Of a stretch of 64,000 nt of DNA, positions 1-33,131 are shown in pieces (the first letter of the stretch is position 1; every line of letters begins with the position of its first letter). Source of the DNA: Escherichia coli (lineage in GTDB: Bacteria > Pseudomonadota > Gammaproteobacteria > Enterobacterales > Enterobacteriaceae); assembly GCF_003018255.1 (NCBI RefSeq), contig NZ_CP027440.1; one strand, written 5' to 3'. The translations under genes were made by a program, and so were the position numbers. The notes beneath the pieces were generated by a model. The model was not told the origin of the DNA. It made no database searches and worked only from the letters and a program-made list of their open reading frames with translations.

Positions 1-107
1 TGCTCCTGACTTAAGCTGCGCACCGACGGCAATTTCTCCCCGTGACGATACAGCCCTTGCTCAATCCGCTCGGCAAGTAGAGTCGCCAGATGTTGATAAC
101 GCGTCAT
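1..107 (-). CDS. yjiR: GntR/MocR-family transcriptional regulator, N-terminal 35 codons only (gene continues beyond window start)
   Basis: Minus-strand ATG at 105-107 preceded by AAGGA; translation MTRYQHLATLLAERIEQGLYRHGEKLPSVRSLSQE looks like a GntR-type winged-HTH N-terminus; lies next to yjiS as in K-12. Confidence 0.55.
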   Translation of the reverse strand, partial: MTRYQHLATLLAERIEQGLYRHGEKLPSVRSLSQE

Positions 108-283
108 GCTGTATTCCTTATTTGGACCATACAGAGAGAAAAACCGGTACAGATGAGGCTAAAAAACCGGATGCAGATGCTGTTTTAACCTGTCTGTATG
201 TTAAATAAAACTAATATTTGCATCTGTATTGTGAACTGCCAGAAGACGGATGATGAAGCCTCTGAAAGATGAGGAGGCAGCAG

Positions 284-448
284 ATGGAATTTCACGAAAA
301 CAAAGCTAAAGCACCGTTTATTGGACTTGTGCAACTCTGGCAGGCAGTGAGGCGTTGGCGGCGGCAAATGCAGGCCCGGCGGGTGTTACAGCAGATGAGT
401 GATGAGCGGTTGAGGGATATTGGGTTACGCAGGGAGGATGTGGAGTGA
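284..448 (+). CDS. yjiS: DUF1127-family small protein (54 aa)
   Basis: ATG at 284 preceded by GAGGAGG; hand translation MEFHENKAKAPFIGLVQLWQAVRRWRRQMQARRVLQQMSDERLRDIGLRREDVE; below the 60-aa cut-off of the ORF track. Confidence 0.7.
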   Translation: MEFHENKAKAPFIGLVQLWQAVRRWRRQMQARRVLQQMSDERLRDIGLRREDVE

Positions 449-544
449 TGGGGCAGTTCGTCGCGGATAAACAGGATTTCTCTATAACCTCCACAAGGAA
501 GTGGTTATTATTGCGAAATCATCGCTTCACGGAAAGACGTCAGA

Positions 545-2638
545 ATGAAAGCTACAGAAGCCCGCCTACTCGATTTTTTAAAACGTTCGCAGCAGTTTGT
601 TATTCCCATTTATCAACGGACTTATTCATGGACAGAACAACAATGTCGGCAACTTTGGGACGACATCATTCGTGCCGGAAAGCGTGACGATATATCAGCG
701 CATTTTATCGGTTCGGTTGTTTATATAGAGCAGGGATTGTATCAGGTTTCTGGTATTTCTCCGTTGCTGGTCATTGATGGTCAACAGCGGCTGACGACCG
801 CAATGTTGCTGATTGAGGCTTTATCACGCCATCTTGGCGAAGACGAAGTTTTTGATGGCTTTTCAGCAATGAAATTGCGTAATTATTATTTACTCAATCC
901 TTATGAGTCCGGCGAGAAAGGATTTAAATTACTGCTGACCGAGACTGATAAAGACAGTTTGCTGGCGTTAATAAAACAAAGACCAATGCCAGAAAACTAT
1001 TCCCATCGAATAATGGAAAACTTTACTTTCTTTGATGAACAAATTGCCAAACTCGGTGATGACTTGATCCCCTTATGTCGTGGGTTAGCAAAGTTATTAA
1101 TTGTCGATGTGGCGCTTAATCGTGGTCAGGATAATCCGCAACTGATTTTTGAAAGTATGAACTCCACCGGTAAGGCGTTAAGTCAGGCCGATCTGGTGCG
1201 CAATTTTATTCTGATGGGCCTCGAACCAGAGCATCAAACCCGGTTGTATGAAGATCACTGGCGTCCAATGGAAGTCGCTTTTGGTCAGCAAGGTTACAGC
1301 GAATATTTTGACAGCTTTATGCGTCATTATCTGACGGTAAAAACGGGGGAGATCCCTCGGACAGATGAAGTCTATGAGGCATTTAAACTCCATGCCCGCA
1401 GCCAGAGTGTTGCTGAAAAAGGCGTAGATCGGCTGGTTGAAGATATTCACATCTACGCGGAGTATTACTGTGCAATGGCATTGGGAAAAGAAAGTGACAA
1501 ATCGCTTGCTACGGCTTTTCAGGATTTGCGCGAGTTAAAGGTCGATGTGGCATATCCTTTCTTACTGGCGCTTTATCATGACTATAAAAATGGCGATTTG
1601 CCTCACGAAGATTTCCTGAGCATAATTCGTTTAATTGAATCTTATGTTTTCCGCCGTGCAGTATGTGCGATTCCGACGAATTCTCTTAACAAGACGTTTG
1701 CCACTTTTTATAAAGTCATTAATAAAGAAAAATATCTGGAAAGTATTCAGGTACATTTTCTGAATCTGCCTTCATATCGTCGTTTCCCCAACGATGATGA
1801 ATTTAAACGGGAATTAAAAGTTCGCGATCTCTATAACTTCCGTAGTCGCAGCTACTGGTTACGACGACTGGAAAACGATAAACGCAGAGAGCGCGTGGAA
1901 GAGTTTACGATTGAGCATATTATGCCGCAGAACGAAAATCTGTCGGCTAAATGGCGCGAAGAGTTGGGAAGCGACTGGCAGCGTGTGCATAAAGAATTGT
2001 TACATACGTTGGGGAATCTCACTTTAACGCGCTATAACTCCCGCTACAGTGACAGACCTTTCGCGGAAAAACGCGATATTGAAGACGGCTTTAAGCATAG
2101 CCCGCTTTATTTGAATATCGGTCTTGGACAGTGCGAAAAATGGGATGAAGCCGCCATTCACGCCCGAGCCGATCGTCTGGCCGATCTTGCGGTTCAGGTT
2201 TGGCAAGCGCCTGCTCTTCCTGAAGAGGTTTTAGCTGTTTATCGGGCGCAGCCGGAGAACAAAACCAGTTACAGCCTGAGTGATTATCCTTTTCTTGCTG
2301 ATGGTTCGCATAGCCGGGTGTTATTTGATCATCTTCGCGATGAAGTTATGCGCCTGGACGCAGGGATCACGCAGGAAGTATTGAAGCTCTATATTGCGTT
2401 TAAAGCTGAAACGAATTTTGTTGATGTTGTGCCGCAAAAAAGCCGACTGCGATTGTCGCTTAATATGCAGTTTCATGAACTGGTCGATCCGAAAGGTATT
2501 GCCAAAGATGTGACAAATGTTGGGCGATGGGGCAATGGCGATGTGGAAATTGGTTTCAGTGACCTCGCACAACTTCCTTACATTATGGGATTAATTCGTC
2601 AGGCATTTGAAAAACAGATGGAGAACGCGTTGGTATAA
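545..2638 (+). CDS. GmrSD-like DUF262 (ParB/Srx-like NTPase) + DUF1524 (His-Me finger nuclease) protein; candidate modification-dependent type IV restriction endonuclease, 697 aa
   Basis: N-terminal motifs IPIYQRTYSW and DGQQRLTT typical of DUF262; C-terminal EHIMPQN...H...GNLTLT...N resembles a DUF1524 His-Me nuclease motif; sits where K-12 has yjiT-mcrCB. Confidence 0.75.
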   Translation: MKATEARLLDFLKRSQQFVIPIYQRTYSWTEQQCRQLWDDIIRAGKRDDISAHFIGSVVYIEQGLYQVSGISPLLVIDGQQRLTTAMLLIEALSRHLGEDEVFDGFSAMKLRNYYLLNPYESGEKGFKLLLTETDKDSLLALIKQRPMPENYSHRIMENFTFFDEQIAKLGDDLIPLCRGLAKLLIVDVALNRGQDNPQLIFESMNSTGKALSQADLVRNFILMGLEPEHQTRLYEDHWRPMEVAFGQQGYSEYFDSFMRHYLTVKTGEIPRTDEVYEAFKLHARSQSVAEKGVDRLVEDIHIYAEYYCAMALGKESDKSLATAFQDLRELKVDVAYPFLLALYHDYKNGDLPHEDFLSIIRLIESYVFRRAVCAIPTNSLNKTFATFYKVINKEKYLESIQVHFLNLPSYRRFPNDDEFKRELKVRDLYNFRSRSYWLRRLENDKRRERVEEFTIEHIMPQNENLSAKWREELGSDWQRVHKELLHTLGNLTLTRYNSRYSDRPFAEKRDIEDGFKHSPLYLNIGLGQCEKWDEAAIHARADRLADLAVQVWQAPALPEEVLAVYRAQPENKTSYSLSDYPFLADGSHSRVLFDHLRDEVMRLDAGITQEVLKLYIAFKAETNFVDVVPQKSRLRLSLNMQFHELVDPKGIAKDVTNVGRWGNGDVEIGFSDLAQLPYIMGLIRQAFEKQMENALV

Positions 2639-2684
2639 CGTGGCGAATAATACCCGGTAGCACTGGCGCTACCGGGTCAATGTA

Positions 2685-3026
2685 TCAGGCGACTTTCTGT
2701 TTACCCGCAATCACCCCAATAAATTCCCGCACCTGCTTTTGTTTACGCGCCGACAGCTTGCACACCTGGCGCAGCGACTGCATTAGCTCGCTCTCTTCGG
2801 GGGCGGGTGGTTGGGCGGTGAGGACAATACAGCCTTCCATCACTTTGACAGCTATCGCCGTGCCGGTGGCAAAACCGGCGGCTTCCAGCCACTGACCTTT
2901 CAGGGTGATGGCGGGAATACGGCTGTAATCCGGGTAGCGACTCGCATAACTCACGGTTAATTGACGGTTATTTGCCGGGGAGACTTCTGCTTCGAACGGT
3001 TGTGCAATAGAATGCGTGTCAGTCAT
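2685..3026 (-). CDS. symE: SymE SOS-induced toxin (type I toxin-antitoxin, AbrB-fold RNase-like), 113 aa
   Basis: Translation from ATG at 3024-3026 ([52 protein letters not shown]...) matches SymE; AAGGA Shine-Dalgarno; the ORF-track N-terminal extension is probably not translated. Confidence 0.85.
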
Positions 3027-3097
3027 AACTGCTATTCCTTGAAAATAGTGATTGTGATGAGCGGTGCGGGTGTGTTGGCGCACATCCGCACCGCGCT
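3020..3097 (+). ncRNA. symR: SymR-like cis-antisense sRNA covering the symE start codon and 5' UTR (approximate ends)
   Basis: Plus-strand -10 TAGAAT at 3008-3013 with weak -35 TTCTGC; the start would fall a few nt inside symE, as described for SymR; a 14-bp stem-loop at 3062-3095 could be the 3' end. Boundaries are inferred. Confidence 0.4.
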
Positions 3098-3104
3098 AAA
3101 TACC

Positions 3105-3120
3105 TGGATATATCATCAGT
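3105..3120 (-). promoter_or_regulatory. Candidate LexA box in the symE promoter
   Basis: Minus strand reads CTGATGATATATCCAG, i.e. CTG-N10-CAG with an AT-rich core, about 80 nt upstream of the symE ATG; symE is a known SOS gene. Confidence 0.35.
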
Positions 3121-3197
3121 AAATACAGGGAAAGTCCAGCTAAAAATTAATGAAAATAAGATAGAAGTTAGCGTGAAATATAATTTTTGGTGATGTG

Positions 3198-3234
3198 AAT
3201 AAAGCGGCTATTGAGCCGCTTTATTGGTTTTATG
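3198..3234. terminator. Hairpin terminator between hsdS and the symE promoter
   Basis: Perfect 11-bp stem AATAAAGCGGC/GCCGCTTTATT with 6-nt loop, followed by GGTTTTA on the plus strand; 13 nt downstream of the hsdS stop on the minus strand. Confidence 0.5.
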
Positions 3235-3246
3235 AGGGCGAGAAAA

Positions 3247-4983
3247 TTAGTTTATCGCCGCGTTAGTCAGTGCGTCTGCAAGGTGCAGTTGGGTTTGTTG
3301 GGCGGTTTTTATACGAGTTTTAAGCTTATCGCATAGTTCATGAAGTAAACCTACTTGTGAAAATATTCTATATTGTTCAGTTAATGGTGGGCATGGGAAT
3401 GAATACAACATTACACTATTTGCTGATAGGTTGGGTTGTGCTGAGCCATTATCAAAGCGGTAAATCTGTGAGCGCCCAAATGGACTGGTTAAATAATTAT
3501 AAATATACCCTCCCATTTCTGTGATAAATGGTCTAATGATCATTAGTGATGAGGCAATAGCTCCTGTTTCATAGGGGGTTACAAAGGCAGTTTTACCAAA
3601 AGTTGCTCCTCGTAGGCAATAAACCAAATCACCTTTTTGAATTTTCCCACTTCTTAATTCATTAAATTTTCCTTCGGTTATAAAATTCATTTCTGTAACC
3701 GTAAGTGTACCATTTTTTTCTATATGTCCAGTATTGATCCAAGGAATACCTTGAGAAACATACTCATTTTTATTGGGATAATTACTTCCACGATCGCCAT
3801 TTATAAACTCTGATGTTAAACCAAATTTACACCACTCCCACCCTTCCGGCAGTTCAAACGGTTTTTCCTCATTGCTAATTGGCGGTAGTGGTTTTTGTTT
3901 TTTTATTTTCCCTTCTTTCACCAGTTGAGCTTTTTCCTGCGCAATTCGTTTGAGCAGTTCAGAGGCGGGTTCGTCATTCGGATCCTGCGGCACAAGTTTA
4001 CCCATTACGGCCAGTTGAAGAATGGTCTGTTTTAACGCATCCACGCTGGCTTCGGTGGTAAATAGGGTGTCGAAATGCTCGCTAATACGCGCCCAGTTTT
4101 CAGCCAGTTCCTCGGCGTTTTGGCTGTCTGTAAGCGTTCCCAACAGGGTTTCAACCAGTTGCTGATGTGCGTCCAGACTGGTCAGGGATTGCTGTTCCAG
4201 TTGGTCGCAGAGAACTGTAAGTTCTCTGATTTTTCTGACAATTTGTTGTTGTTCATTTATAGGCGGTAAAGCGATTATCTGTTGTTCCATTTTTTCTTTA
4301 GTCATATGGAGCATTGCAATACCGTTACCTTGCGATTTTATTTTATCTGTAATGGATAAAAGAAAATCATGTATAAAATATTTGTTTGAGTACTCTTCTG
4401 CAAATAAATTTAATTTCCATATATGGTAGTGATAAATTACTTTTTCTCCTGTCCAAATGAATGGCCCAAAAGATGCGGACCAAGCGTATATTAAATCACC
4501 ATTATTTATATATTTGTTTTCGTCTAATTGGAGGTCAGAGTAATACCACTCATTTGATGTGAATAGATTACCAACACGCAGCAAAGGAGTGCCTGTTTGA
4601 AGCATTTCATGTTTTTTATATGCTCGACCGTTAATAACCTCCATGAGATCTGCAACCCGCACCCACTCCCATCCCTCCGGCAATTCAAACGGCTTCTCTT
4701 CCTCGCTAATTCCTGGCAGTGGTTTTTGCTTTTTAATTTTACCTTGCTTCACCAGCTCTGCTTTTTCCGCAGCAATACGCTTCAGCAGCTCCGACGCCGG
4801 TTCATCATTCGGATCCTGCGGCACCAGTTTACCGCGCACCGCCAGTTCCAGAATCAGCTCACGCAATTTCTTAATGCCATACAAATCAATTTTACCGGAA
4901 CTGCCGCGCCCGGCGGTGGAACGGGTTTGCAACGCCGAGGTCCAGGTTTCCATATGATCAACGATCAGCTTTTCCACACTCAT
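3247..4983 (-). CDS. hsdS: Type I restriction-modification specificity subunit HsdS (578 aa)
   Basis: Two AT-rich variable domains separated by duplicated conserved segments (KLVPQDPNDEPASELLKRIA...KPFELPEGWEW twice); start overlaps the hsdM stop (TGATG). Confidence 0.85.
   Translation of the reverse strand: MSVEKLIVDHMETWTSALQTRSTAGRGSSGKIDLYGIKKLRELILELAVRGKLVPQDPNDEPASELLKRIAAEKAELVKQGKIKKQKPLPGISEEEKPFELPEGWEWVRVADLMEVINGRAYKKHEMLQTGTPLLRVGNLFTSNEWYYSDLQLDENKYINNGDLIYAWSASFGPFIWTGEKVIYHYHIWKLNLFAEEYSNKYFIHDFLLSITDKIKSQGNGIAMLHMTKEKMEQQIIALPPINEQQQIVRKIRELTVLCDQLEQQSLTSLDAHQQLVETLLGTLTDSQNAEELAENWARISEHFDTLFTTEASVDALKQTILQLAVMGKLVPQDPNDEPASELLKRIAQEKAQLVKEGKIKKQKPLPPISNEEKPFELPEGWEWCKFGLTSEFINGDRGSNYPNKNEYVSQGIPWINTGHIEKNGTLTVTEMNFITEGKFNELRSGKIQKGDLVYCLRGATFGKTAFVTPYETGAIASSLMIIRPFITEMGGYIYNYLTSPFGRSQIYRFDNGSAQPNLSANSVMLYSFPCPPLTEQYRIFSQVGLLHELCDKLKTRIKTAQQTQLHLADALTNAAIN
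3829..4032. repeat. hsdS internal direct repeat, copy B (central conserved region)
   Basis: About 200 bp, roughly 80-85% identical by eye to 4660-4863; encodes the second GKLVPQDPNDEPASELLKRIA...PFELPEGWEW segment. Confidence 0.7.
4660..4863. repeat. hsdS internal direct repeat, copy A (N-terminal conserved region)
   Basis: Direct repeat partner of 3829-4032 within the same gene. Confidence 0.7.
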
Positions 4984-6452
4984 CAGTTAACCTCCTTGCC
5001 AGACAGCGCAGCGCCAAGAATATCGCGCAGTTGATTACGCAGCGTCTGGATCTCCGCCTGCTGTTTTGCATACTGCGCTAACAGTTCGTCCGGGTCATGG
5101 CTGACGGTTTCCGCCTGATGTGGGTTTTTAATATCCAGATTGAAGTTACGCGCAATCACGTCATCAATGCTGACTTTCCACGCTTGCTCATTCTCGATGC
5201 GGCTGGCAAAACCATCGGCCTCGTTACCCCACCAGTCAATCTCCGCCTGAAACTCTTCGAACTTCATCGGCTTGGTTTTACTGTAATTTTTCACGCCCGC
5301 CGGATACGGATGCTCATAGAACCAAATCTCTTTGGTTGGCTGACCTTTGGTAAAAAACAACAGGTTGGTTTTAATGCCGGTATAGGGGTTAAACACACCA
5401 TTCGGTAAACGCACGATGGTATGCAGATTGCACTCTTCGGTAAGCAGCTTTTTGATTTTGGTTTTAACGCCTTCGCCAAATAGCGTGCCATCCGGCAATA
5501 CCACCGCCGCGCGACCGTTTTTCGCCAGTACTTCCACAATCAGTTGCAGAAACAGATCCGCTGTTTCGCGGGTTTGCATCTCTGCCGGAAAGTTCTTCTC
5601 AATACCGTCTTCTTCCGTGCCACCAAACGGCGGGTTGGTAACAATGACATCCAGTTGCTCATCCCAGGAGGAAAGCGGTTTGTTCAGGGTGTTGTCGTGA
5701 CGAATTTGTACAGGCACTTCAATGCCGTGCAGCAGCATATTGGTGGTCGCCAGCAGGTGCGGAAGCTGTTTTTTCTCGACACCGTGGATCTGTTGTTGCA
5801 GCGTCTGATGATCGGCGACGCTCTTCACGTATTTGTTCTTTACATGATCGAACGCGCAGGCAAGAAAACCGCCCGTACCGCAGGCCGGGTCCATAATGGA
5901 TTCGCCGAGTTTCGGATCAACGCGATCCACCATAAAGCGAGTGACGGCGCGTGGCGTATAGAATTCGCCAGCATTGCCCGCAGATTGCAGATCTTTAAGG
6001 ATCTGTTCGTAAATATCACCAAACAGATGGCGTTCGCTGGCGCTGGTAAAGTCAATTTCGTTCAGCTTGTTGATCACCTGGCGCAGTAGCGTACCGTTTT
6101 TCATATAGTTATAGGCATCGCTGAACGCCTGCTTCACCACGTAGCCGCGTGGGTTTTTATCGATAGGCGCAGTGAGGTTTTTCAACGCCGGGAACAGATC
6201 ATCATTAACGAATTCCAGCAGGGAATCACCGGTAATGCCCTGAGCGTTTGCGGCCCAACTGCGCCATAAATAACGCTGTGGGATCGGATATTGATAGTTA
6301 TCCTGCTCCAGTTCCAGCGCCTCTTCCTGGGCATCGAAGATTTTCAAAAACAGCAGCCAGGAGAGCTGACCGAGACGCTGCGCATCGCCATCCACACCGG
6401 CATCTTTGCGCATAATATCTTGTAATGATTTGATTACTGAACTGATAGACAT
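4983..6452 (-). CDS. hsdM: Type I restriction-modification N6-adenine DNA methyltransferase HsdM
   Basis: SAM-binding motif DPACGTGGFL and catalytic NPPFGG present. Start chosen at ATG 6450-6452 (MSISSVIK...); in-frame alternative ATGs at 6464 and 6488 (longest ORF 4983-6488). Confidence 0.85.
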   Translation of the reverse strand: MSISSVIKSLQDIMRKDAGVDGDAQRLGQLSWLLFLKIFDAQEEALELEQDNYQYPIPQRYLWRSWAANAQGITGDSLLEFVNDDLFPALKNLTAPIDKNPRGYVVKQAFSDAYNYMKNGTLLRQVINKLNEIDFTSASERHLFGDIYEQILKDLQSAGNAGEFYTPRAVTRFMVDRVDPKLGESIMDPACGTGGFLACAFDHVKNKYVKSVADHQTLQQQIHGVEKKQLPHLLATTNMLLHGIEVPVQIRHDNTLNKPLSSWDEQLDVIVTNPPFGGTEEDGIEKNFPAEMQTRETADLFLQLIVEVLAKNGRAAVVLPDGTLFGEGVKTKIKKLLTEECNLHTIVRLPNGVFNPYTGIKTNLLFFTKGQPTKEIWFYEHPYPAGVKNYSKTKPMKFEEFQAEIDWWGNEADGFASRIENEQAWKVSIDDVIARNFNLDIKNPHQAETVSHDPDELLAQYAKQQAEIQTLRNQLRDILGAALSGKEVN

Positions 6453-6518
6453 GTTGTATTCCATGAAAAACAAGGCCTTCTGCAACATGATGGTTGCAGA
6501 AGGCGCAAAAGAGAGTTG

Positions 6519-8951
6519 TTAAGCAGAGCGGGGCGGTAATTGGTAGATTTCGTTTTCCAGCTCGCTGAGCGCCTGATTATACCCGTTACGGTCGCCAAAT
6601 CCGGTTTTAATAATCTCCGGTAAGGTGCCCATGCTGTCGAATGGTTTAAGTTTCAGCACCTGAATACTTTCGATCTCCTGTACGCCCGCATCGGCGTATT
6701 TATCCAGCAGATTATCGAGCACGGCTTGCGCTGCTTCAGAGTATTTTGTGAAGTAGTTCCGCTTGCGCACGTTCTCGGCGCGCTCTTTGCGGGTTAACGG
6801 CGGCTGACCATACACTACGTGGCAAAGCATGTCGAACGGGTCGAGATCTTTACCGACTTCTTCTGCCAGTACTTCCCAGATGATCCCCTGTTGTTCCAGC
6901 TCGTGAATGATCGCTTCTTTGCGATCGGCGTCCTGCCACTTGCGGGTAAAGTCATCCAGCGAGGCATATTCTTTGAGCAGTGTTTTGCGGGTGTAATCTT
7001 TAAAAGATTCGGTAACCAGTTTACCGTCGGCATCGTAATACTGAACACGCTGCGCAATAACGCCCACCGCTACACCGTTGACGTGAAACTTGCGGATTTT
7101 CTTCTCGTCTTCTTCCGGAAGTGGGCCGACATCATCGGTATCGGTAACCTGGTATGGTGGCGCAGGCGGTTCATCAACGCCTGTTACCTGTTCGTCGTCA
7201 TGTTCGCTGATTTCTTCGAGTTTCTCTTCAAAATCAGATTCTGGATCGGCGATATCCTCTGATGTGGTATCCATGACTTTTTCGGGAATGCCATCGAAAC
7301 GCTCATCGGCAAACAGTTCGGTGGCTTTTTTAAAGTCGAGGATGGTAAACCAGAGTTTGCCGTAACGTTCGTCGATGCGTGTACCACGACCGATAATTTG
7401 CTTGAATTTGGTCATCGACTGGATGTTCTGGTCCAGTACTACCAGTTTGCAGGTTTTAGCATCCACACCAGTGGTCATCAGCTCTGAAGTGGTCGCGATA
7501 ACCGGGTACGCTTTTTTCGGGTTGATGAAGTTATCCAACTGAGCTTTGCCAATTTCATCATCGCCGGTGATTTTCATGACGTATTTGTCGTTCTTTTTCA
7601 CCTGCTCCGGGTTGAGATTCACCAGGGCGCGGCGCATACGTTCTGCATGATCGATGTCGTTACAGAAGACGATGGTTTTATCCATCGGGTTGGTGCGCTT
7701 GAGGTAGTCGGTAATGGTTCTGGCAACCAGTTCTGTCCGTTCGTCGATTACCATCGTGCGATCGAAATCTTTCTGGTTATAGATACGATCGTCGATCACT
7801 TCGCCGTTTAAGTCAGTTTGCCCTTTGGTTGGGCGCCAGCCTTGCAGATCAACATCAATATCAACACGGACAACTTTATAAGGGGCGAGGAAGCCGTCTT
7901 CGATCCCTTCTTTTAGCGAGTAGACGTAAACCGGATCGCCGAAGTAATCCGTGCTGGAGACTTCATGCGTCTCTTTTGGCGTGGCGGTTAAGCCAATTTG
8001 GGTGGCGGAACTGAAATAATCAAGGATCTCTCGCCAGGCGCTGTCTTCGGATGCGCTGCCGCGATGGCATTCGTCGATCACGATCAGATCGAAGAAATCT
8101 GGTGCGACTTGTTTAAACGCTTTTTGGTCTTCCTCCGGGCCAGTTATAGCCTGATAGAGCGCGAGGTGAATTTCATAAGCGGGATCAATGGTGCGTCCGC
8201 TGACTTTGGTCATTGCCGTACCAAATGGCTGGAAATCATTATTTTTGGTTTGGTCGACCAGAATGTTGCGATCGGCAAGGAACAAAATGCGTTTTTTATT
8301 TTTTGATTTCCACAGGCGCCAGATGATCTGGAATGCGGTATAGGTTTTCCCTGTTCCGGTCGCCATGACCAGCAGAACGCGGTTTTGCCCGTTGGAGACG
8401 GCTTCAATGGTTTTGTTGATTGCCTGAAGCTGGTAATAACGAGGCGATTTGCCGCTGCCATCGTCGTAATAGTCCTGAGTAATCACCGGAAGCTGAGCTT
8501 GTGTGTATCCTTTCCAGAGGCAGAATTTTTGCCAGAGTTCAGCGGGGGAGGGGAAGTCATCCAGCGTTATTTGCTTTTCAAGGCATTCACCTTCAGCTGC
8601 GGTGGCATCGCGGAAGATAAAGCCATCACCGTTGGTGGCAAAAACAAAAGGAACGTCCAGCAGGCGCGCATATTCAATGCCCTGTTGCATCCCTTTGCCA
8701 ATTTCATGTTTGTTGGCTTTTGCTTCAATCACGGCTAAGGGAATGCCTGGTTTGTGATACAGCACGATGTCAGCAGATTTTACCGTTCTGCGTGCCGCAA
8801 CTTTACCACGTACGATGACTTTACCGTTCCGGAGTTTGACCTCCTGTCTGATTTGCGTTGTGTTGTCCCAGCCTGCATTGAGAATGGCTGGCATAACGCA
8901 TTTGGTAATGATGTCTGCTTCCGTCAGGTTACTTAGGTTCAGTTCCGCCAT
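6519..8951 (-). CDS. hsdR: Type I restriction endonuclease subunit HsdR, 810 aa (EcoAI-like / type IB size class)
   Basis: Helicase motifs [11 protein letters not shown] (Walker A) and VIDECHRG (DECH box); 810 aa is far shorter than EcoKI-type HsdR; gene order hsdR-hsdM-hsdS on the minus strand. Confidence 0.9.
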
Positions 8952-21574: not shown

Positions 21575-21612
21575 ATAAAAATGCCCGATAAGCAAAATGT
21601 TATCGGGCATAG
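21575..21612. terminator. Hairpin terminator between convergent tsr and lgoT
   Basis: Perfect 11-bp stem ATGCCCGATAA/TTATCGGGCAT with 8-nt loop; A-run on plus side (U-run for minus-strand lgoT). Confidence 0.55.
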
Positions 21613-33095: not shown

Positions 33096-33131
33096 TCCAC
33101 ATGATGCCGGGTTTACTTCCCCGGCAGTGCT

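Follow-up and report, generated by a model that had tools for sequence, protein, structure and literature searches.

A conserved stem-loop marking the convergent ends of symE and a GmrSD-like gene in Escherichia coli

At the ends of Rho-dependent transcripts, stable stem-loops without a U-rich sequence mark and protect the RNA (Dar and Sorek 2018, PMC6061677), and stem-loops are also known to position bidirectional termination between convergent genes (Ju, Wang and Liu, by SEnd-seq; bioRxiv 10.1101/2022.10.23.513370). Together with the intrinsic terminators of E. coli and the hairpin that follows symE in strain K-12, these are the systems closest to a perfect inverted repeat located between two convergent genes, symE and a GmrSD-like gene, in the E. 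coli DNA analysed here (64,000 nucleotides of contig NZ_CP027440.1, assembly GCF_003018255.1; the whole stretch is called the window, and the strand as presented the plus strand). The founding paper on symE, Kawano 2007 (PMC1891008), makes no mention of a terminator. The repeat is a conserved stem-loop that marks the ends of both genes, in other words an ordinary terminator-type hairpin and not a new kind of element.

The likeness to the intrinsic terminators of E. coli lies in a GC-rich stem of 8–10 bp, a 6-nt loop, a position at the end of a transcription unit, a few nucleotides past the stop codon, and a tail rich in U on the symE strand; in the O157:H7 allele, this tail is a U5 run flagged by a terminator scan. 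The window allele differs in that its U-tract is interrupted (UAUUAUUCG) and falls short of five U in eight after the full stem, in that its plus strand has no U-tract, and in that its relatives in other genera have no U tails. With the Rho-dependent protective stem-loops (PMC6061677), it has in common a stable stem-loop without a U-rich tail and, immediately downstream, an untranslated antisense RNA that is C-rich and G-poor; however, the symE-strand tail is more U-rich than is typical, and the part played here by Rho and exonucleases is a putative one. Overlapping bidirectional terminators (bioRxiv 10.1101/2022.10.23.513370) likewise consist of a single stem-loop, used on both strands, in a short convergent gap, but the flanking A-tract/U-tract symmetry of the classic bidirectional intrinsic terminators is missing from the window hairpin, symE is normally repressed, and the hairpin persists beside a co-directional neighbour. 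The K-12 hairpin is compared below, with the other variants of the region.

The locus and its stem-loop

The window includes the immigration-control region, with the gene order yjiS, GmrSD-like gene, hairpin, symE/symR, hsdS, hsdM and hsdR. The GmrSD-like gene (545–2638, plus strand) is an intact type IV restriction ORF of 697 aa with the Pfam domains GmrSD_N, GmrSD_C and DUF5655. On the minus strand, symE (2685–3026) encodes an SOS-induced type I toxin, an endoribonuclease, of 113 aa, according to the RefSeq annotation of identical DNA and to a Pfam SymE_toxin match (E = 2.4e-21). The antisense RNA symR lies at the 5′ end of symE (3021–3097, plus strand; Rfam RF01809, 91.7 bits, E = 1.9e-17), and this match anchors the symE unit in both identity and orientation. 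Since the symE stop codon occupies 2685–2687 (minus strand) and the GmrSD-like ORF ends at 2638, the convergent gap measures 46 bp (2639–2684). In strain 2014C-3338, 261 bp around the hairpin are 100% identical to the window by BLAST, and its record is annotated with yjiR, yjiS, a GmrSD-type gene, symE, hsdS, hsdM and hsdR (a type I restriction system).

Beyond the hairpin, the first 8.8 kb of the window differ from 2014C-3338 by 12 substitutions, all of them at or past 6725 (6725–8595, hsdR region), with 1–6724 identical. The 697-aa GmrSD-like ORF is intact and the same in 2014C-3338 (4006–6099 of locus L001) as in the window (545–2638), and its RefSeq annotation splits it into a ‘partial DUF262’ pseudogene and a 387-aa CDS; in O157:H7 EDL933 (1007–3099 of locus L003), the gene has a genuine frameshift past about residue 270. 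The C-terminal half of the GmrSD-like protein (1445–2635, plus strand) is about 60% identical to the products of plasmid-borne genes of cyanobacteria (Nostoc, Planktothrix, Picosynechococcus) and alphaproteobacteria, and protein similarity of this kind suggests a wide horizontal spread of the gene. The homologues on plasmids comprise E. coli records (two at about 98% and one at 47% identity) and distant ones in cyanobacteria, alphaproteobacteria and others, at no more than about 60% amino acid identity; those outside E. coli are too distant to show whether the hairpin travels with the GmrSD-like gene.

The two arms of the repeat (2652–2661, ACCCGGTAGC; 2668–2677, GCTACCGGGT) are 100% complementary around the loop ACTGGC, as established by reading of the sequence and by a repeat finder, and the perfect 10-bp inverted repeat (2652–2677) that the original prediction had placed in the 46-bp gap between the convergent stops is thus borne out. 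The same RNA hairpin forms from either strand, beginning 7 nt past the symE stop and 13 nt past the GmrSD-like stop, each on its own strand. With ten perfect pairs, seven of them G–C, and a 6-nt loop, it lies within the limits applied to the stem-loops of intrinsic terminators (stem of at least 5 bp, loop of 3–8 nt). RNA folding, proposed earlier as a check, returned the expected hairpin for the 26-mer, at −19.1 kcal/mol on either strand (z-scores −4.45 and −4.88), and none of 200 shuffles folded as well.

Perfect inverted repeats of at least 10 bp with loops of 3–10 nt number six distinct instances in the window, versus a mean of 0.69 in 100 dinucleotide shuffles. The pattern of this particular repeat, with up to three mismatches allowed, was matched in no shuffle and has no second copy within the window. 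An Rfam search of 2640–2690 gave no match even at E values up to 1, and symR is the only family to pass the threshold in the window.

Across genera, the hairpin is linked to symE

Within the species, 1287 of 5426 complete E. coli genomes contain the 73 bp around the hairpin, each of them a single time, and the site is in every case flanked by the GmrSD-like gene and symE; E. coli 536 and APEC O1 match the window over these 73 bp at 100% identity. One copy at a fixed locus makes it a single-copy, locus-specific element and not a dispersed repeat; a REP/BIME or other dispersed palindromic repeat was rejected on this count (one place per genome in the 1287 genomes) and on the lack of any copy in the window at three or fewer mismatches. 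Alignment of nine E. coli alleles on the symE strand revealed an 8-bp core, CCCGGTAG/CTACCGGG, invariant in all nine, with changes confined to the loop, the terminal pairs and the tail. The G34A allele has its stem lengthened to 11 bp and its loop shortened to 4 nt. In the O157:H7-type allele, the two terminal pairs are missing on the symE strand, and CAUUUUUCG replaces UAUUAUUCG as the tail. Two contigs labelled ‘MAG: Bacillota bacterium’ (L017 and L018) carry an E. coli-type symE (91–93% identity) followed by the same hairpin, L018 also having a GmrSD-like gene of 99% identity; both are probably mis-binned Escherichia DNA.

In K-12, where the neighbour of symE is mcrB and co-directional with it, BLAST homology to the window ends at the symE stop codon. 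This strain nevertheless has a hairpin of its own 10 nt past the symE stop and upstream of mcrB, CTCCCGGT-TAACC-ACCGGGAG. It resembles the window hairpin in its distance from the stop (7–10 nt in the two cases), in its CCCGGT/ACCGGG core and in being GC-rich with no real U-tract, whereas the outer stem, the loop and the direction of the downstream gene are different. Read on the plus strand of the K-12 locus (L002, 3968–3988), its sequence is CTCCCGGTggttAACCGGGAG, which looks like a hybrid of the main families CTCCCG.. and ..CCCGGT, and it is located where homology between the cassette variants breaks. A GC hairpin immediately 3′ of symE is likewise seen in further variants of this region in E. 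coli.

A scan with the SymE protein, limited to one genome per species, yielded 56 loci, in 52 of which the gene is intact. Of these 52, 47 have a hairpin of −14 kcal/mol or lower within 70 nt past the symE stop, mostly beginning within about 20 nt of the stop; by the same measure, 55% of the 47 long ORFs of the window are followed by a hairpin. Tails with at least five T in eight nucleotides occur at only 3 of the 47 symE-homologue hairpins, and an A-rich head, equivalent to a U-tail for the opposite strand, at 10 of the 47.

The type seen in the window, CCCGG[T/C]AG ... CT[A/G]CCGGG, was found 3′ of symE in four further loci with diverse neighbours. In Klebsiella spallanzanii (L045), the neighbour is a GmrSD homologue, 83% identical and convergent with symE; in Citrobacter sp. 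(L034), it encodes a 488-aa protein with no Pfam match, again convergent; in Kluyvera ascorbata (L036), it is a NucS_C/DUF5655 protein gene, co-directional with symE; and in an Enterobacteriaceae bacterium (L037), the co-directional neighbour is a homologue of the Kluyvera one by a weak BLAST match only. Raoultella ornithinolytica (L051), in which a co-directional AAA_5 ATPase gene lies next to symE, has a less regular hairpin of this type, with an imperfect stem, 3′ of symE. Across genera, the flanks of these hairpins are unalignable and the stem is alignable, and the hairpin is linked to symE rather than to the GmrSD-like neighbour. The relatives in other genera have no U-rich tail (0–3 T in eight), and therefore what is conserved is a hairpin and not a canonical terminator.

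As to the other symE 3′ hairpins of Enterobacterales, they fall into few classes (L016, L023–L025, L029, L031–L033, L035, L043, L048 and L067; L019, L020, L026, L028, L030, L039, L042 and L066): a CCGCTCCCGAC..GTCGGGAGCGG family, often with an upstream A-tract that amounts to a U-tail for the convergent gene, REP-type palindromes in Citrobacter, Pseudocitrobacter and Kluyvera, and canonical AAAGGCGCC..GGCGCCTTTTT terminators.

Covariation was examined in an alignment of eight sequences on the symE strand, Raoultella L051 being left out. Paired cells amount to 93.8%, against 20–45% when the 3′ partners are slid; two pairs are changed on both sides (U–A to C–G in four of the eight sequences, A–U to G–C in two), a covariation score attained by 3 of 500 shuffles, and RNAalifold independently gives the same 9-bp stem. 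Such covariation, perhaps reflecting two evolutionary events only, is modest evidence; as read from the alignment, it speaks for a structure under selection rather than for a protein site defined by sequence. Concerning the strand, pairing in the reverse-complement alignment is 95.0% versus 93.8% on the symE strand, and wobble asymmetry is uninformative, with internal G·U wobbles in three non-E. coli loci favouring the symE strand and the terminal wobbles of O157:H7 the opposite one. A first comparison of folding energies at the 47 loci (p = 0.0045 for the symE strand) was discarded as biased, the hairpin having been picked on that strand; in an unbiased comparison, the hairpin is more stable on the symE strand at 23 loci versus 17 for the other strand (p = 0.077).

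Tails, downstream composition and transcript ends

In the terminator scan, a U-tract was defined as at least five T in eight nucleotides, beginning 0–2 nt past the stem. The plus-strand tail, CAAUGUAU, has three U in eight and falls below this value (CAATGTAT, three T), so that there is truly no U-tract on that strand. On the minus (symE) strand, the tail after the 10-bp stem (2644–2651) is 5′-AUUAUUCG-3′, with four U in eight, and if the outer A–U pair is open, it becomes UAUUAUUC, with five U in eight, which is U-rich but interrupted. The window allele, with its interrupted U-tract UAUUAUUCG on the symE strand, was not flagged by the scan. The O157:H7 allele, on the other hand, was flagged on the symE strand (CCCGGTAGCGCCAGGACTACCGGG CATTTTTCGC), with the tail CAUUUUUC that is typical of such alleles and attains the U-tract value. 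It had been claimed that no U-tract follows on either strand, which holds for the plus strand and not for the U-rich, if interrupted, tail of the symE strand (AUUAUUCG). The further claim that the element is not an intrinsic terminator is right insofar as it is not of the textbook type, but for the symE strand the dismissal was premature: the tail is U-rich, and since the U5 run in other E. coli alleles scores as a terminator, an intrinsic-terminator role for symE cannot be dismissed.

Viewed against the other described types, the locus gives a mixed picture. A single stem-loop between convergent stops that folds on both strands is what characterizes a bidirectional terminator of a convergent pair. 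The sequence signature of such a terminator (A-tract upstream and U-tract downstream, giving a U tail on both strands) is absent here, only the minus strand being U-rich. A stable stem-loop with no U-rich sequence after it, as in protective hairpins, is clearly present on the plus strand and only partly so on the minus strand, and the C-rich, G-poor, rut-like untranslated RNA expected of such hairpins is found just downstream. The first 80 nt past the hairpin on the plus strand (2678–2757, 27 C and 13 G) have a C/G ratio of 2.08, compared with a 95th percentile of 1.78 for the window, and are untranslated because they are antisense to the 3′ end of symE; this stretch is a candidate Rho loading region. 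Past the hairpin on the minus strand, the ratio is 1.58 in the first 80 nt and 2.2–2.4 at 81–180 nt. The suggestion of a Rho-dependent pause site is thus upheld only in part, Rho being plausible for the plus strand, where the hairpin has no U-tail and is followed by 80 nt with this C/G ratio of 2.08.

On balance, we favour the reading in which the hairpin is the 3′-terminal stem-loop of the symE transcription unit, acting as a leaky, non-canonical intrinsic terminator, and in which the same stem-loop ends the GmrSD-like mRNA, where its palindromic sequence and its place in the 46-bp convergent gap allow it to form as well. For symE, the hairpin and its interrupted U-rich tail (UAUUAUUCG) would bring about leaky, weak intrinsic termination, stronger in U5 alleles. 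Transcripts reading through would run antisense into the GmrSD-like gene, untranslated, to be finished by Rho and then trimmed back by 3′–5′ exonucleases to the foot of the stem. The GmrSD-strand hairpin, which lacks a U-tail, probably does not terminate by itself; it would mark a stable or protected 3′ end once Rho has stopped transcription in the C-rich region that adjoins it downstream, and collisions with polymerases coming from symE may help. Termination or 3′-end protection at the hairpin, as well as the share of each mechanism, is something we infer from these features.

The Term-seq supplement for K-12 (PMC7815308) lists a strong symR 3′ end and does not list symE, which is expected of a LexA-repressed gene. 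SymR (3021–3097, plus strand) ends 3 nt past a GC-rich hairpin (3061–3074/3081–3094) followed by GCTAAATACC, with no U-tract; its strong primary 3′ end in K-12 (PMC7815308) sets a precedent, within the locus itself, for transcripts that end at hairpins lacking a U-tract. The interval from the hsdS stop to the symE promoter region contains a perfect 12-bp inverted repeat (3198–3225, AATAAAGCGGCT/AGCCGCTTTATT) that has a T-tract on the plus strand and, judged from these letters, looks like a terminator halting plus-strand read-through from symR or the GmrSD-like gene. Elsewhere in the window, the layout of the symE/GmrSD-like hairpin is repeated at two convergent pairs with one palindromic hairpin each: at 21581–21610, in a 49-bp gap, with a U-tail on the minus strand only, and at 33105–33126, in a 37-bp gap, with a U-tail on neither strand.

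Alternative readings and significance

[quoted passage not shown] It would account for a hairpin kept across genera without any U-rich tail and for the rarity of such tails, with at least five T in eight nucleotides at just 3 of the 47 symE-homologue hairpins; C exceeds G downstream on both strands, the anatomy matches that given by Dar and Sorek (PMC6061677), and SymR, encoded in this locus, has its end just past a hairpin that lacks a U-tract. It does not fit the E. coli alleles in which the symE-strand tail is U-rich (UAUUAUU) or a U5 run, the latter form scoring as a terminator.

Convergent transcription itself could be the driving force: the hairpin would fix the site of head-on collision between polymerases transcribing symE and those transcribing the GmrSD-like gene, with trailing polymerases completing release. 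The mechanism has been described (bioRxiv 10.1101/2022.10.23.513370), and one palindromic hairpin in a 46-bp convergent gap, together with two further convergent pairs in the window (37–49 bp gaps), each having a single palindromic hairpin, speaks for it. We nevertheless regard it as unlikely, given that symE is LexA-repressed, making head-on traffic rare outside the SOS response, and that a hairpin of this type is kept beside a co-directional gene in Kluyvera, with an analogous one in K-12, so that convergence is not required. Because the hairpin persists beside co-directional neighbours, head-on collision cannot explain its retention.

About equally improbable is that the hairpin is a dedicated module tied to symE and not a generic terminator, setting the stability or insulation of the symE mRNA or marking the recombination edge of the cassette. 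The idea is based on a mostly U-less 3′ stem-loop that stays with symE in Enterobacterales even as the defence genes beside it change, on the presence of a covarying hairpin beside four different neighbours, and on the break of cassette-variant homology within a few bases of the hairpin. In the first of these roles, it would add a further layer of control on a tightly repressed toxin.

It is very unlikely that the palindrome has no function, arose by chance or is an RNase III site. In favour of such readings are the frequency of U-less hairpins 3′ of genes in this genome and the lack of any Rfam match, but chance is contradicted by the enrichment of inverted repeats over shuffles (6 versus 0.69, with no matches to the pattern) and by a core that is invariant in E. 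coli and covaries across genera between unalignable flanks. RNase III normally needs double-stranded RNA of roughly two helical turns, and a 10-bp stem is well below this and too short for a standard substrate. Moreover, deletion of rnc leaves SymE protein levels unchanged, according to a review (PMC4147584), and the earlier proposal of an RNase III target finds no support.

Least probable of all is a DNA-level site, be it a palindrome bound by a dimeric protein as its operator, or else a cruciform or a recombination junction bordering the variable cassette of the immigration-control region, for although K-12-type and GmrSD-type homology breaks at the symE stop, adjoining the hairpin, and differing cassette variants each have a hairpin at the same position, the loop sequence is variable (4 nt in the G34A allele), compensating changes in the arms preserve pairing and not base identity, no second copy lies at the other cassette border or elsewhere in the window, and the location is the 3′ ends of two genes and not a promoter, all of which leaves the protein-binding site of the original prediction unsupported.

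The hairpin is a previously undescribed instance of a very familiar type, namely the 3′-end stem-loop or terminator hairpin common to convergent genes, and in this respect it is routine: comparable hairpins end more than half of the genes of the window, and a shared one is found at other convergent pairs too. For the biology of the immigration-control region, it means that the symE toxin gene gains a defined 3′ boundary, of which the founding paper (PMC1891008) describes none. Transcript ends are predicted at about 2643–2651 for symE and at about 2678–2680 for the GmrSD-like gene, and the arrangement suggests how two convergent defence and stress genes may avoid running into each other.
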